Assembly (NCBI GenBank): GCA_018895125.1
Contig: JAHIOR010000032.1
Span: 1 to 30,013, forward strand
Source of the DNA: Patescibacteria group bacterium
GTDB lineage: Bacteria; Patescibacteriota; Minisyncoccia; Minisyncoccales; GWA2-46-15
Direction: 5' to 3'
DNA length: 30,013 bases
The position numbers were made by a program, and so were the translations under genes. The notes under the pieces were generated by a model. It was not told the origin of the DNA and did no database searches. It saw nothing but the letters and a program-made list of their open reading frames with translations. Below, in pieces: positions 1,354 to 27,529 of this stretch; within the stretch, counting starts at the first letter, position 1, and each line of letters starts with the position of its first letter.

Positions 1354-3084
1354 ATGGTTAATCGAGAGCTTGCCAAAATCTTTTCAGAAATGGCGATCTT
1401 CCTCAGAATGAAGGAAGTTCCCTTTAAACCTCAGGCTTATGAAAGGGCAGTTTTGGGATTAGAAACTCTTAATAAAGAAGCCAGCGAAATTTACCAACAG
1501 AAGGGGATTGAGGGGCTCAAGGAAATCCCCGGGATTGGGGAAAATCTGGCAGATAAGATCAAAGAATACTTAGAAACAGGCAAGATCAGGTCCTATCAGA
1601 AGCTGAAGCAAGAAATGCCAATTAATCTTGAAGAACTGACAGCGGTTGAGGGCATTGGTCCAAAAGCTATAAAATTGCTTTGGTCGAAACTGAAGATAAA
1701 AAACCTAAAAGATTTAGAAAAGGCGGCTCGGGCCAAAAAACTCAGATTATTGCCTGGTTTTGGCGAAAAGTCAGAAAAGAACATCTTAACAGGGATCGGG
1801 TTTTTAAAGAAAAGTCAGGGGAGGTTCCTTCTGAGCGAAATACTGCCGGAAACCCAGAAAATTGTTTCAAATCTTGAAAAACTTAAAGAGGTAGAAGAAA
1901 TAAGCTTGGCCGGGTCTTTGCGTCGAGGCAAAGATACCATTGGCGACGCTGATATTTTAGTTATTAGCCAGGATCCTGGTAAAGTTATTAAAAGCTTTAT
2001 TTCTTCCCCTGGCATTCTCAAGGTTTGGGGGCAGGGGTTAAAAAAGGCTTCGATCAGGACCAAGCAGGGATTTGATATTGATCTGAGAATCGTGCCAAGA
2101 AAAAGCTATGGTTCGGCTTTACAATATTTTACCGGCTCAAAAGAGCATAATATCTTTCTTCGAAAAATGGCAATGGGAAAGGGATTGAAACTTAATGAAT
2201 ACGGGGTTTTCCATGGCAAAAAAATGATTGCCGGGACAACTGAATCAGGCATTTATCAGGCCATTAATTTGCCTTTTATTGAGCCGGAATTAAGAGAAAA
2301 TCGAGGTGAGATTGAAGCAGCCAGGGCAAAAAGATTGCCAAGGCTAATTACCCTCAAAAACATTTTCGGGGATCTGCATTGCCACTCTTCCTGGAATGGC
2401 GGCCAAAATACGATTTCAGAAATGGCCCAGACTGCCCGAGCCAGGGGTTATCGTTATCTAGGGATTGCCGATCATACCAAGTTTTTAAGAATCGAAAACG
2501 GCTTGGATGAAAAACAGCTTTTAAATCAGCGTCGGGAAATCGATAAATTAAATGAGAAATTTATTAAACAGGGCATTGATCTCAAAATTTTGCAAGGCTG
2601 TGAAGCTAATATTTTAGAAAACGGCTCGATCGACATCAATAACCAGGCATTGGAAGGCCTTGATTTTGTCATTGCCGGGATCCATTCCCAAATGAAGATG
2701 ACTAAAGCTAAAATGACAGCTAGAATAATTCGCGCCATGGAAAATCCTAATGTTGATATCATTTCCCATCCGACCGGAAGAATACTGAAGAAAAGAGATG
2801 AGTTTCAGATTGATTTCGAAAGAGTTTTAAAGGTTGCCAAGGAGACAGGTACAATTCTGGAAATAAGCTCGTCGCCATCCAGACTAGACCTGAAAGATCT
2901 TAACATCAAGCTTGCCAAGGAGGCAGGAGTTAAGATGGTTATTAACACAGACTCTCACTCCGCTAGCCAATTGGAGCTTATGGATTACGGCGTTATTCAG
3001 GCCAGGAGAGGCTGGGCTGAAAAAAAAGACATTATTAACTGTTGGTCCTTAGAAAAACTGCTGACTTTTTTAAAAACTAATTAA
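1354..3084 (+). CDS. polX: DNA polymerase X with C-terminal PHP (3'-5' exonuclease) domain
   Basis: HhH motifs (IPGIG, VEGIGPK, LPGFGEK), AGSLRR..TIGDADIL, IDLR, YFTGSKEHN; PHP motifs DLHCHS, ADH, E, HS and NTDSH. Confidence 0.95.
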   Translation: MVNRELAKIFSEMAIFLRMKEVPFKPQAYERAVLGLETLNKEASEIYQQKGIEGLKEIPGIGENLADKIKEYLETGKIRSYQKLKQEMPINLEELTAVEGIGPKAIKLLWSKLKIKNLKDLEKAARAKKLRLLPGFGEKSEKNILTGIGFLKKSQGRFLLSEILPETQKIVSNLEKLKEVEEISLAGSLRRGKDTIGDADILVISQDPGKVIKSFISSPGILKVWGQGLKKASIRTKQGFDIDLRIVPRKSYGSALQYFTGSKEHNIFLRKMAMGKGLKLNEYGVFHGKKMIAGTTESGIYQAINLPFIEPELRENRGEIEAARAKRLPRLITLKNIFGDLHCHSSWNGGQNTISEMAQTARARGYRYLGIADHTKFLRIENGLDEKQLLNQRREIDKLNEKFIKQGIDLKILQGCEANILENGSIDINNQALEGLDFVIAGIHSQMKMTKAKMTARIIRAMENPNVDIISHPTGRILKKRDEFQIDFERVLKVAKETGTILEISSSPSRLDLKDLNIKLAKEAGVKMVINTDSHSASQLELMDYGVIQARRGWAEKKDIINCWSLEKLLTFLKTN

Positions 3085-5014: not shown

Positions 5015-5085
5015 TTATAGCGGGCGTCCCGCCCGGTATACTTTTAATTATAGCGGTTAGTAAACCGATATATCGTACTCGCTAT
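5015..5085. repeat. Structured palindromic element: partial copy 5015-5040 plus full copy 5048-5085; second full copy at 24069-24107
   Basis: TTATAGCGG-[hairpin]-CCGATATATCGTACTCGCTAT. The 21-mer at 5065-5085 is identical to 24087-24107. Confidence 0.85.
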
Positions 5086-6846: not shown

Positions 6847-6921
6847 TACGTGGCTATGAGATATAGTAGAGTAATACGGAATAATTATAGTAGTCACGAA
6901 GTAATACAGTATAATATCGCA

Positions 6922-6956
6922 TCCTCGTTAATTATTCATATGCAATATTAGCGAGG
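6922..6956. repeat. 35-bp palindromic direct repeat, left copy flanking the PaaX/Cas2-like gene
   Basis: TCCTCGTTAATTATTCATATGCAATATTAGCGAGG; 28/35 identical to 7598-7632. Confidence 0.85.
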
Positions 6957-6982
6957 ACGAGTAAGGACGAGTAAACGAGTAA
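6955..6982 (+). repeat. Short tandem repeat GGACGAGTAA x2 + ACGAGTAA
   Basis: Read directly at 6955-6964, 6965-6974 and 6975-6982. Confidence 0.85.
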
Positions 6983-7003
6983 AAGCGATATAATAGATGC
7001 AAG

Positions 7004-7588
7004 GTGAGCCAATACAAATATTATTTTAGAAAACCAAGGCTGGAGATAATCAAAGATATTTTAACGGTTTTAATGCTGACCGGGGCAGTTTGTATCGCCG
7101 CTACTTCACCTTATTTCGGCGTTAATTTAATGCGCTATTTCAAACGCGCAAGAAAGTATAAAAAAAGTGAAAGGAAAAATATTTATAATGCTTTTTATCG
7201 TCTTCGAAAAAATGGTTGCCTGGAACTTAATTTAAAAAATCATCAACTTTATATTTCTTTAACTGAAAAAGGGAAAAAGATGGCTGGCAGATTCCAGATA
7301 AACTTTTTAAAAATCAAAAAACCGTTGAAATGGGATGCAAAATGGCGCCTGGTGATTTTTGATATTCCTAATTTTCATGGAATTAAAAGATCTGTTTTTC
7401 GGGGAAAGCTTAAAGAACTAGGATTTTATCAGTTGCAAAAGAGTGTTTGGGTCCATCCTTATAACTGTCGCGATGAAATTAATTTGTTAAGAGAATTCTT
7501 TGGTTTAAGCAGGAAAGAAATCCGTTTGATTATCGCAAACGATATTGAGGATAGCGCCTCTATCAAAAAAGCGTTTCAGTTAAAGTAA
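7004..7588 (+). CDS. PaaX-like protein: N-terminal helix, winged HTH, and Cas2/VapD-like ferredoxin-fold domain
   Basis: AFYRLRKNGCL...LYISLTEKG (wHTH) followed by WDAKWRLVIFDIP...RSVFRGKLKELGFYQLQKSVWVHPY, the PaaX central/Cas2-like signature. GTG start. No paa or cas genes nearby. Confidence 0.8.
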   Translation: MSQYKYYFRKPRLEIIKDILTVLMLTGAVCIAATSPYFGVNLMRYFKRARKYKKSERKNIYNAFYRLRKNGCLELNLKNHQLYISLTEKGKKMAGRFQINFLKIKKPLKWDAKWRLVIFDIPNFHGIKRSVFRGKLKELGFYQLQKSVWVHPYNCRDEINLLREFFGLSRKEIRLIIANDIEDSASIKKAFQLK

Positions 7589-7597
7589 TTTTCATTG

Positions 7598-7632
7598 TCC
7601 TTGTTAACTATCTGTATGCAATGTTAACGAGG
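7598..7632. repeat. 35-bp palindromic direct repeat, right copy
   Basis: TCCTTGTTAACTATCTGTATGCAATGTTAACGAGG, starting 9 nt after the stop codon of the PaaX-like gene. Confidence 0.85.
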
Positions 7633-7647
7633 GGGTATATTTTATCG

Positions 7648-7677
7648 AGAGAATCAAATTTAAGAGAATCAAATTTA
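7648..7677 (+). repeat. Exact 15-bp tandem duplication AGAGAATCAAATTTA x2, with a degenerate third copy at about 7681-7696
   Basis: Read directly at 7648-7662 and 7663-7677. Confidence 0.9.
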
Positions 7678-7698
7678 TATGGAGAAAATCTAATTTGG

Positions 7699-24068: not shown

Positions 24069-24107
24069 TTATAGCGGGCAGGATGCCCGATATATCGTAC
24101 TCGCTAT
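24069..24107. repeat. Second full copy of the structured palindromic element
   Basis: TTATAGCGGGCAGGATGCCCGATATATCGTACTCGCTAT. Confidence 0.85.
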
Positions 24108-26411: not shown

Positions 26412-27529
26412 AAGTCATTAAAGTAGGCAATCAAAGTCAGGCAATCAGACAGGCTACAATTAAAAAAGCAATTGCTGTCTTGAAGAAAGGCGGTCTTGTC
26501 ATTTATCCAACAGAGACTTGTTATGGCATTGGCGCTGATGCCACTAACTTAAAAGCTGTTGAAAAAGTTTTGCAGTTTAAGGGCAGTCGGGGGAATAAGC
26601 CAGTTTCAATAGCAGTGGCAAATAAAGAAATGGCTGAGAAATATGTTCTTATTAATAGTACGGCTGCTAATTTGTATAAGGAGTTTCTGCCTGGCCCCTT
26701 GACCGTAGTTTCCAAGAGCAGACAAAAGACAGCTAGGCTTTTAGAAGCGGGCCAGGAAACTTTGGGTATCAGGATTCCTGATTATGATTTAATTATTAAA
26801 ATAATCAAAGAATTCAATCGTCCTATTACTTCAACTTCAGCTAATACTTCGGGAAAGAAAACCCCATACTGCTTAAATGACGTTTTAAAATACACGACTC
26901 CAAAACGCCTTGGTTTAGTTGACTTGTTTTTAGACGCGGGCCGTTTGCCCTTTCATTTACCCACAACCGTGGTTGACACAACTCTGAACGAGCCCAAGGC
27001 TTTGCGCCAGGGGGAGATAAAGATTAAAGCGACTTCAAAAAACACTTTTATATCAGGCTCTGAAGAAGAAACTAAAAAGATTGCCCAGGATATTTTTAAG
27101 AAGTATGAAAAAGTTCTAGTTAAGAAGAGTTTGATCTTTGCTCTTCAGGGAGAATTGGGTTCTGGCAAAACCCAGTTTGCCAAGGGGTTGGGATTGTTTT
27201 TAAATATAAAGAATAATATTACTTCGCCAACCTTTACCATCATCCGCGAATACCCGTTCAGTTTAAGCCCACAAAGGCTACAGAGGCCCGGCCTCTGTAA
27301 ATCTGGAGTGTTTTACCATTTGGATACCTGGCGGCTTGAGAAAGGAGAAGAATTATTGACCCTGGGTCTGGAAAAAATGCTTTCTTCAAAAAATGTTGTT
27401 GCCATCGAGTGGATGCAAAAAATCAGACCAATTTTAAAACAGCTTCAATCCAAAAAGAAAACCCAGATTATCTGGGTTATGATTGAGTTTTTATCTGAAA
27501 ACCAGCGGCGGATTACTTATCGTGGTTAA
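26408..27529 (+). CDS. tsaC-tsaE: Fused TsaC (YrdC/Sua5-N) and TsaE t6A biosynthesis protein
   Basis: YPTETCYGIG, PGPLT, GIRIP, STSAN, TTVVD...LRQG, then SEEET, GELGSGKT (Walker A), SPTF, YHLD.WRL, IEW, in one uninterrupted ORF. Confidence 0.9.
   Translation: MKVIKVGNQSQAIRQATIKKAIAVLKKGGLVIYPTETCYGIGADATNLKAVEKVLQFKGSRGNKPVSIAVANKEMAEKYVLINSTAANLYKEFLPGPLTVVSKSRQKTARLLEAGQETLGIRIPDYDLIIKIIKEFNRPITSTSANTSGKKTPYCLNDVLKYTTPKRLGLVDLFLDAGRLPFHLPTTVVDTTLNEPKALRQGEIKIKATSKNTFISGSEEETKKIAQDIFKKYEKVLVKKSLIFALQGELGSGKTQFAKGLGLFLNIKNNITSPTFTIIREYPFSLSPQRLQRPGLCKSGVFYHLDTWRLEKGEELLTLGLEKMLSSKNVVAIEWMQKIRPILKQLQSKKKTQIIWVMIEFLSENQRRITYRG
27279..27299. repeat. Perfect REP-like palindrome inside the TsaE coding region
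   Basis: TACAGAGGCC-C-GGCCTCTGTA; encodes QRPGLC within an apparent loop insertion. Confidence 0.8.

Follow-up and report, generated by a model that had tools for sequence, protein, structure and literature searches.

A truncated PaaX-family gene in a Patescibacteria genome lies between twin copies of a palindrome that also occurs at other loci

Introduction

What is the function of a small gene that sits between two copies of one palindrome, and what does its product have to do with that palindrome? These questions are raised by a locus in contig JAHIOR010000032.1 of an ultra-small groundwater bacterium of the Patescibacteria. All 30,013 nt of this contig were analysed and are called the window here (contig C23 of the host genome G000, which has 631,906 bp and is 90% complete). 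The gene encodes a 194-aa protein, for which we use the name mini-PaaX, and is flanked by an upstream (U) and a downstream (D) copy of the palindrome. The original prediction, made from the sequence of the window, had described it as a lone gene with its cognate palindromes and had offered three options for this module: a mobile or excisable cassette, an autoregulator with twin operators, or a nuclease acting on hairpin RNA or single-stranded DNA.

The Patescibacteria, also known as the Candidate Phyla Radiation (CPR), have tiny genomes with few recognisable regulators, and almost no genetics is available for them. In the literature on PaaX/Cas2-like winged-helix proteins or palindromic elements in these bacteria, no description of the layout reported here was found. 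The explanation that we favour, with moderate confidence, is that the mini-PaaX gene is self-bracketed and probably self-repressing, and that its cognate palindrome has also been spreading by copy-paste.

Results

Twin palindromes bracket the mini-PaaX gene and its relatives

The 35-nt repeats that had drawn attention to the locus (6922-6956 and 7598-7632) are identical at 28 of 35 positions, and all seven differences are transitions, just as had been reported for this pair. A degenerate pattern of the pair was found at only these 2 sites in the 30-kb window and had 0 matches in 100 shuffles, which rules out a chance repeat. The repeats are separated by 641 nt, and it was confirmed that the sole content of this interval is the mini-PaaX gene. 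The D palindrome is a direct copy of U, with 29/40 identical positions in direct orientation vs 25/40 as the reverse complement. The dyad centre of U is 64 nt 5′ of the start codon, and 12 of its 16 inner position pairs are symmetric; D begins 10 nt 3′ of the stop codon and has 10/16 such pairs. Compared to the consensus of ten copies of this palindrome (the C23 type) from three genomes, U has 4 mismatches.

The gene is not alone, as had been thought, because a protein search found ten mini-PaaX paralogs in G000, on nine contigs and with 34-57% identity. Nine of the ten are bracketed by two copies of a palindrome, and the palindrome differs for each paralog. Twins were then defined by a dyad in each flank plus an identity of at least 24/40 between the two, and of 36 modules in 12 genomes of the order to which G000 belongs, 29 have twin palindromes by this criterion, compared to 9/181 cross-locus flank pairs as a control. 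In a set of 28 modules, drawn from as many further genomes of the phylum, 19 have twins and several more have one palindrome left. When 401 genomes sampled from the phylum were searched with a profile, 102 had the family, in a patchy distribution and with 1 to at least 8 copies per genome. Therefore, the proposal of a gene-plus-cognate-palindrome module, and the paired palindromes that it led one to look for in homologues, were borne out for most family members.

Two paralogs on contig C55 depart from the usual form. The one at C55:8073-8843 (minus strand) encodes a three-domain PaaX-like protein of 257 aa with PaaX_M and PaaX_C and has twin palindromes, and the one at C55:5200-5739 (minus strand) encodes a 180-aa protein with a shortened FDIP region and has no palindromes. 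A conserved, terminator-like hairpin (C84:~1307-1346; arms cacaacacgtc / gacgtgtt) was also seen in several genomes of the genus (loci L025, L035 and L023), located 115-205 nt 5′ of C84-type modules.

Mini-PaaX is a two-domain protein

The mini-PaaX protein consists of a winged helix (approximately residues 11-100) and a Cas2-like central domain (approximately residues 108-181). In Pfam, PaaX_M was matched with E=3.3e-18 and 66 bits vs a cut-off of 24, in agreement with the earlier recognition of a PaaX central domain, the PadR winged helix was matched weakly, and Cas2 (PF09827) stayed below its cut-off (13.3 vs 23.8). The NCBIfam scores were 38.7 bits vs a cut-off of 264.55 for TIGR02277 (PaaX) and 20.0 vs 24.5 for TIGR01573 (Cas2), and the Cas2 hits of PADLOC were sub-threshold only. 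There was no hit to PaaX_C (PF08223), the ligand/effector-binding C-terminal domain, and the chain stops at residue 194, after the Cas2-like domain. An AlphaFold2 model (predicted local distance difference test score, pLDDT, 77) has a helix-helix-helix-strand-strand unit at residues 11-86. A Foldseek search gave a single strong match, to Escherichia coli PaaX (8a39; E=7.5e-6 across 188 columns); weaker matches were the PaaX-like structures 3kfw and 3l09, the winged helices of AspA, PadR and MarR, and Cas2 chains, which matched the central domain with a probability of 0.99.

Five residues are invariant across 24 family members: D120 (of the FDIP motif), R129, F141, Q145 and S147. Residue D120 is aligned with the β1 Asp of Cas2, a position that is Ser in E. 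coli PaaX. As had been noted, there are no paa or cas genes near the locus (a whole-genome search for paa genes was not made), and a search for Cas1 (PF01867) gave no match in the 90%-complete G000 genome and was positive in 7 control genomes. The named public records in the cluster of close paralogs read 'hypothetical protein', from a metagenome-assembled genome of the Parcubacteria group. Judged by these profile and fold comparisons, mini-PaaX belongs to the PaaX family in a truncated form. It falls short of the equivalog cut-off and has neither PaaX_C nor a paa context, and is therefore not PaaX proper; it is not Cas2 either.

The palindromes resemble double-stranded sites of a dimer

Across the modules, the identity between U and D was 0.74-0.92 inside ±20 nt of the dyad and 0.26-0.40 beyond, and therefore the repeated unit is the palindrome of approximately 40 bp alone. 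Outward from the centre, dyad symmetry was 97%, 76%, 98% and 93% at ±1 to ±4, 50-72% at ±5-8, and 72-97% at ±9-17. There are thus two symmetric blocks about one helical turn apart, and the symmetry continues through what would be the loop of a hairpin. The centre usually reads GC-NN and NN-GC on the two sides of the dyad, with a self-complementary middle, and the outer arms vary between paralogs.

The upstream dyad precedes the start codon by a median of 42-43 nt, and the upstream copy is 18-88 nt away from it in most modules, whereas the downstream dyad is a median of 33 nt past the stop codon, with the palindrome often abutting the stop. The twins were in direct orientation in 20 modules and inverted in 4, with 24 ties (p=0.0015). 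It was considered whether the downstream copy might be the operator of the next gene; this was rejected, since the next downstream gene is convergent in 18/47 modules, and therefore the downstream copy belongs to the module and not to the neighbour. The copies are not plain intrinsic terminators either, because no T-run follows them and the type of palindrome is linked to the type of gene.

The symmetry profile also bears on another reading, in which the repeats form hairpins in both untranslated regions (5′ and 3′), as RNA or as single-stranded DNA. The Cas2-like domain would bind or cut these hairpins, or they would act as stabilisers or terminators. The two copies in the window do fold into the same hairpin, as first described, with an identical 10-bp outer stem (-10.7 and -10.9 kcal/mol) and with changes that preserve pairing: both bases of pair 11/26 change (T-A to C-G), and there are two G.T swaps. 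The downstream copy comes directly after the stop codon, and among the mismatched pairs of the modules sense-strand G.T is in weak excess over A.C, chiefly in downstream copies. However, the innermost position is 97% symmetric although a loop requires no symmetry there, the least symmetric positions are those at ±5-8, in the would-be stem, and 139 of the 226 mismatched pairs on the sense strand are neither G.T (54) nor A.C (33). The all-transition pattern of the window pair proved to be local, with 85 transitions and 95 transversions between upstream and downstream copies over 29 modules, so that transitions are not enriched among the differences. No terminator was called at U or D by a terminator scan, no T-run follows either copy, and an Rfam search of the window matched only the tmRNA and not the palindromes. 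In addition, the orphan copies described below occur on either strand relative to their neighbours, between convergent genes and in coding sequence. Because the would-be loop is symmetric, the would-be stem has a relaxed zone, and the mismatches are mostly non-wobble, the palindromes look like double-stranded sites of a symmetric dimer. The RNA-hairpin reading, and with it the predicted nuclease acting on hairpin RNA or single-stranded DNA, is disfavoured, and we regard it as very improbable. Among the three options offered originally, an autoregulator with twin operators would be the best fit, given the duplex-dimer symmetry and the distance of the upstream copy from the start codon.

Palindromes have been copied to other places and are coupled to their gene types

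A census of long dyads found 43 sites in G000 vs 2 in a shuffled genome. At least 15 of the census sites are orphan palindromes of module type, most of which match the type of a G000 paralog, and none adjoins a paralog. There are two orphans of the C23 type, at C46:9219-9254 and C57:2940-2975. Orphans were also found in frame, and are translated, within the genes for peptidyl-tRNA hydrolase (Pth) and RNase HII (Table 1). The Pth segment is present in 4/6 genomes of the genus and absent from the orthologues of G001 and G002, and the RNase HII segment is common to G000 and G003 and decayed in the others. The palindromes have been copied into intergenic sites and also into genes, where they keep the reading frame.

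The co-occurrence of gene and palindrome was scored across eight genomes of the genus. The C23-type palindrome was found only in G000, G001 and G004, the three genomes that have the C23-type gene, and the C66-type palindrome only in G000 and G006, the two that have its gene; G006 contains four identical, perfect 36-mers of this type. The C71-type palindrome was found in the gene carriers G000, G004 and G006, plus one degenerate, in-frame Pth copy in G003. Within the C23 type, asymmetries at ±6-8 and a T.G at ±12 are common to U of the G000 module, the C57 orphan and all four G004 copies, and the G001 copies and the C46 orphan are symmetric at these positions. Such common quirks argue for descent by copying and not for independent evolution of binding sites.

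The half-site identity between modules rose from 0.40 to 0.70 and 0.99 as protein identity rose from <40% to 60-80% and >80%, showing that protein and palindrome types diverged together, with ten private pairs in G000. When residue-base mutual information was computed across 48 modules, the top-scoring pairs were scattered (R163, G134, V22 and others) and pointed to no specificity residue. The palindrome centre (±1-5) followed the Cas2-like domain over the winged helix (regression 0.75 vs 0.08; Spearman 0.34), a link that is only suggestive.

The module is an accessory insert in a conserved gene block

The order argS-His_Phos-ileS is conserved across the bacterial order, and a module is present between argS and the histidine phosphatase gene (His_Phos) in G000, G001 and G004 only, the orthologues having 72% identity in G004 and 70% in G001. 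In G002, G005, G006, G007 and G011 this spacer is 57-117 nt long and gene-free, and homology with the 68-nt spacer of G006 picks up again at ~7698 of the window. Other inserts occupy the spacer in G003 (a 374-aa MORN-repeat membrane protein, L067:293-1417) and G010 (an AbrB-PIN toxin-antitoxin pair, L076:741-1404). The site is thus filled in three genomes and gene-free or differently occupied in relatives, which makes it a variable spot in an otherwise conserved block of aminoacyl-tRNA synthetase genes and the module an accessory insert. The original prediction had suggested looking here for an empty site that retains a single repeat. Empty sites do exist, contrary to what would have refuted the prediction, but the expectation of a retained repeat was wrong as put: the spacers of G005, G006 and G011 have no repeat, and those of G002 and G007 have a decayed solo palindrome of a different type.

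The sites of orphans vary as well: the C46 orphan is missing from the orthologous spacers of G003 and G006, and the C57 orphan keeps its site in G001, is found in the adjacent spacer in G004, and is replaced by a palindrome of a different type in G003. The filled locus was unchanged in contigs of groundwater runs from three studies, and no repeat-to-repeat joint, circle or excision was found in contigs of four groundwater runs, which drop rare variants and so could miss excision. The idea of a mobile or excisable cassette is partly supported, by the orphans that have quirks in common and by the presence or absence of the module at a conserved site, whereas its excision has no support from these assembled contigs.

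What could have copied the palindromes

The genome contains an internal comparator with the same architecture, which is also a candidate for an alternative mobiliser. Two RAYT-like Y1 transposase genes (Y1_Tnp), at C70:3101-3820 and C89:6410-7267 (both minus strand; loci L114 and L115), each lie between two copies of their own GC-rich repetitive extragenic palindrome (REP), with 3-5 orphans elsewhere, one of them intragenic at C46:9645, which is a classical REP/RAYT arrangement.

It is conceivable that such Y1 transposases, or host replication and recombination, spread the mini-PaaX palindromes as well, and that mini-PaaX only binds them, as a regulator or as a tamer encoded by the element or the host. 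Y1_Tnp is present in 11/12 relatives that have mini-PaaX vs 4/9 that do not. The REPs that flank the RAYT-like genes are nevertheless unlike the mini-PaaX palindromes, being GC-rich with 14-bp stems and 1-5-nt loops, and palindrome type tracks mini-PaaX type, whereas the mere occurrence of a Y1 gene does not predict it: G002, G003 and G007 have Y1_Tnp but neither C23-type nor C66-type palindromes, and G009 (85% complete) has a mini-PaaX module, with no Y1_Tnp found. We consider this origin of the copies rather unlikely.

The same tracking of palindrome type by gene type would be expected if mini-PaaX mobilised its own palindrome, as a functional analogue of REP/RAYT systems in which a winged helix plus a Cas2-fold nuclease replaces the HUH transposase. 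The two direct copies would then stem from the duplication of a target or an end, much as Cas1-Cas2 duplicates the CRISPR repeat. The layout (a gene between cognate palindromes, plus orphans) is that of the RAYT-like genes of G000, derived asymmetries are common to copies across loci and species, copies are found in frame in Pth and RNase HII, the twins are direct rather than inverted (20 vs 4), and the Asp at position 120, Ser in E. coli PaaX, is invariant and aligned with the β1 Asp of Cas2. On the other hand, we know of no nuclease or recombinase activity of PaaX-type proteins, Cas2 is a non-catalytic subunit of the CRISPR integrase, and Cas1 was not found in G000. Copies are few (2-5 per type), some orphans are old, with the same site conserved across species, and the contigs of the four runs contain no excision, circle or deletion joint. 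Mobilisation by mini-PaaX itself is, in our judgement, doubtful.

Other features of the locus and other repeats of the genome

Directly 5′ of the left palindrome, each of two 16-nt direct repeats terminates in a -10-like hexamer, the second being the TATAAT at 6910-6915 from which a transcript had been proposed to start. The hexamer is present, but a promoter scan did not call it, and promoter-like sites were fewer in the window than in shuffles; from their sequence the repeats are candidate tandem promoters. The second TATAAT box, 9 nt 5′ of the GTG start, would yield a nearly leaderless transcript. The short tandem duplications reported after both palindromes were found again, as a 10-mer x2 after U (complete over 6954-6973) and a 15-mer x2 after D. 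The neighbours of the mini-PaaX gene are smpB and the tmRNA gene, argS, the histidine phosphatase gene and ileS; an ARAGORN search found no tRNA gene in the window. Coordinates are given in Table 1.

Table 1. Coordinates of the mini-PaaX locus in the window and of the two in-frame palindromes elsewhere in G000.
Feature	Position	Strand	Details
Candidate tandem promoters	6870-6915	+	two 16-nt direct repeats, 6870-6885 and 6900-6915, 30 nt apart
Upstream palindrome U	6920-6959	.	core 6922-6957; dyad centre between 6939 and 6940
Tandem 10-mers	6954-6983	+	AGGACGAGTA x2 plus a partial third copy; overlap right arm of U
Second -10-like box	6985-6994	+	TATAAT at 6989-6994; 9 nt 5′ of GTG start
Mini-PaaX gene	7004-7588	+	194 aa; GTG start
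Downstream palindrome D	7596-7635	.	core 7598-7633; dyad centre between 7615 and 7616
Perfect tandem 15-mers x2	7648-7677	+	3′ of D; repeat search
Segment missing in five relatives	6847-7697	+	present in G000, G001 and G004; argS/His_Phos spacer comparison
In-frame palindrome in Pth	G000:C79:27309-27342		C71 type
In-frame palindrome in RNase HII	G000:C17:~1720-1756		resembles the module type of G003

Two further kinds of repeat were seen. A third dispersed element of the genome consists of a GC hairpin followed by the core ATATATCGTACTCGCTAT and has approximately 10 copies, often just 5′ of genes (window 5015-5085 and 24071-24107; G000:C80:4371; and contigs C7, C14, C51, C54, C61 and C81); it adjoins the mini-PaaX paralog of C80 and may carry a -10 box. 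At 27274-27293 of the window, in the TsaE part of a TsaC-TsaE fusion gene, there is a perfect GC-rich palindrome (arms acagaggcc and ggcctctgt) that belongs to neither of the two RAYT-flanking REP types nor to a mini-PaaX type.

Discussion

A model that accommodates these results would have a mini-PaaX homodimer bind its own palindrome of approximately 36-40 bp as double-stranded DNA, reading the conserved central core (±1-4) and the two variable outer blocks (±9-17). The upstream copy, placed in the promoter or leader of the gene, would then bring about self-repression, as for PaaX at the promoter Px, with RNA polymerase hindered at the promoter. The operator of E. coli PaaX is TGATTC-N27-GAATCA, and PaaX represses its own promoter (PMC9493321). 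The downstream copy, just past the stop codon, might act as a roadblock, an insulator, or a looping partner of the upstream copy. In addition, the palindromes have been multiplied by copy-paste.

Several observations weigh against this model. Operators would not be expected between convergent genes, where four of the approximately 12 intergenic orphans are found, or in coding sequence, which contains two or three orphans. Few copies of this type are as degenerate as the two in the window, in which 14 and 11 of 18 pairs are symmetric. The residue-base covariation over the 48 modules is dominated by shared ancestry. Lastly, the excess of G.T over A.C (p=0.03, from data that are non-independent) amounts to 33 vs 15 in the downstream copies and, weak as it is, leaves some space for a single-strand role.

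A bolder proposal goes beyond binding, namely that the Cas2-fold, non-HUH mini-PaaX is the recognition-and-cleavage component of new self-propagating palindromic elements of CPR bacteria. Staggered cuts would duplicate the 36-40-bp palindrome, sometimes with the gene between the copies, at new sites, and such a mechanism would be nearer to the duplication of CRISPR repeats than to REP/RAYT transposition. We put this forward as a long shot.

The family is prevalent for bacteria with so few recognisable regulators: it takes up ten loci in a 0.63-Mb genome and occurs in about a quarter of the sampled genomes (102/401). If the mini-PaaX proteins and palindromes are private repressor-operator pairs, they would provide ready-made DNA-binding parts that are orthogonal to one another, as well as a clean natural experiment on the co-evolution of protein-DNA specificity. 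If mini-PaaX also drives the spread of the palindromes, there would be a second way, with a non-HUH protein, to lead a REP/RAYT lifestyle, and the Cas2 fold would be tied to the duplication of repeats in a setting other than CRISPR. In both cases, the palindromes account for short insertions that keep the reading frame of essential genes in these genomes, and they mark variable sites that are relevant for annotation.

Among known systems, mini-PaaX resembles PaaX of E. coli and Pseudomonas (PDB 8a39 and 3l09; PF20803; TIGR02277) in having a winged helix plus a Cas2-like central domain, and the long inverted-repeat operator of E. coli PaaX is of a similar span (PMC9493321). In contrast to PaaX, mini-PaaX lacks the C-terminal phenylacetyl-CoA effector domain, scores below the TIGR02277 cut-off, has no paa genes nearby, is present as ten paralogs in 0.63 Mb, has sites on both sides of its gene as well as orphan sites elsewhere, and has an invariant Asp in place of the Ser of E. 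coli PaaX. The central domain is like Cas2 and VapD in its ferredoxin-like fold and β1 Asp; unlike Cas2, it is below the Cas2 cut-offs and is fused to a winged helix. In the tolerance of small palindromes in frame in essential genes of a reduced genome, the orphans recall the Rickettsia palindromic elements. At about 100-150 bp the Rickettsia elements exceed the orphans in length, and no protein gene is associated with them.

The nearest system-level analogue appears to be REP/RAYT (PMC3116915, PMC3337134), in which a single gene is likewise flanked by cognate palindromes, with a repeat family per gene type and dispersed orphans. The mini-PaaX modules differ in that the bracketed gene encodes a PaaX_M protein and not an HUH/Y1 transposase (the Y1_Tnp genes of G000 are on other contigs), in that the flanking copies are direct and not inverted, in having 2-5 copies per type rather than tens to hundreds, and in having palindromes that are perfect through the centre.

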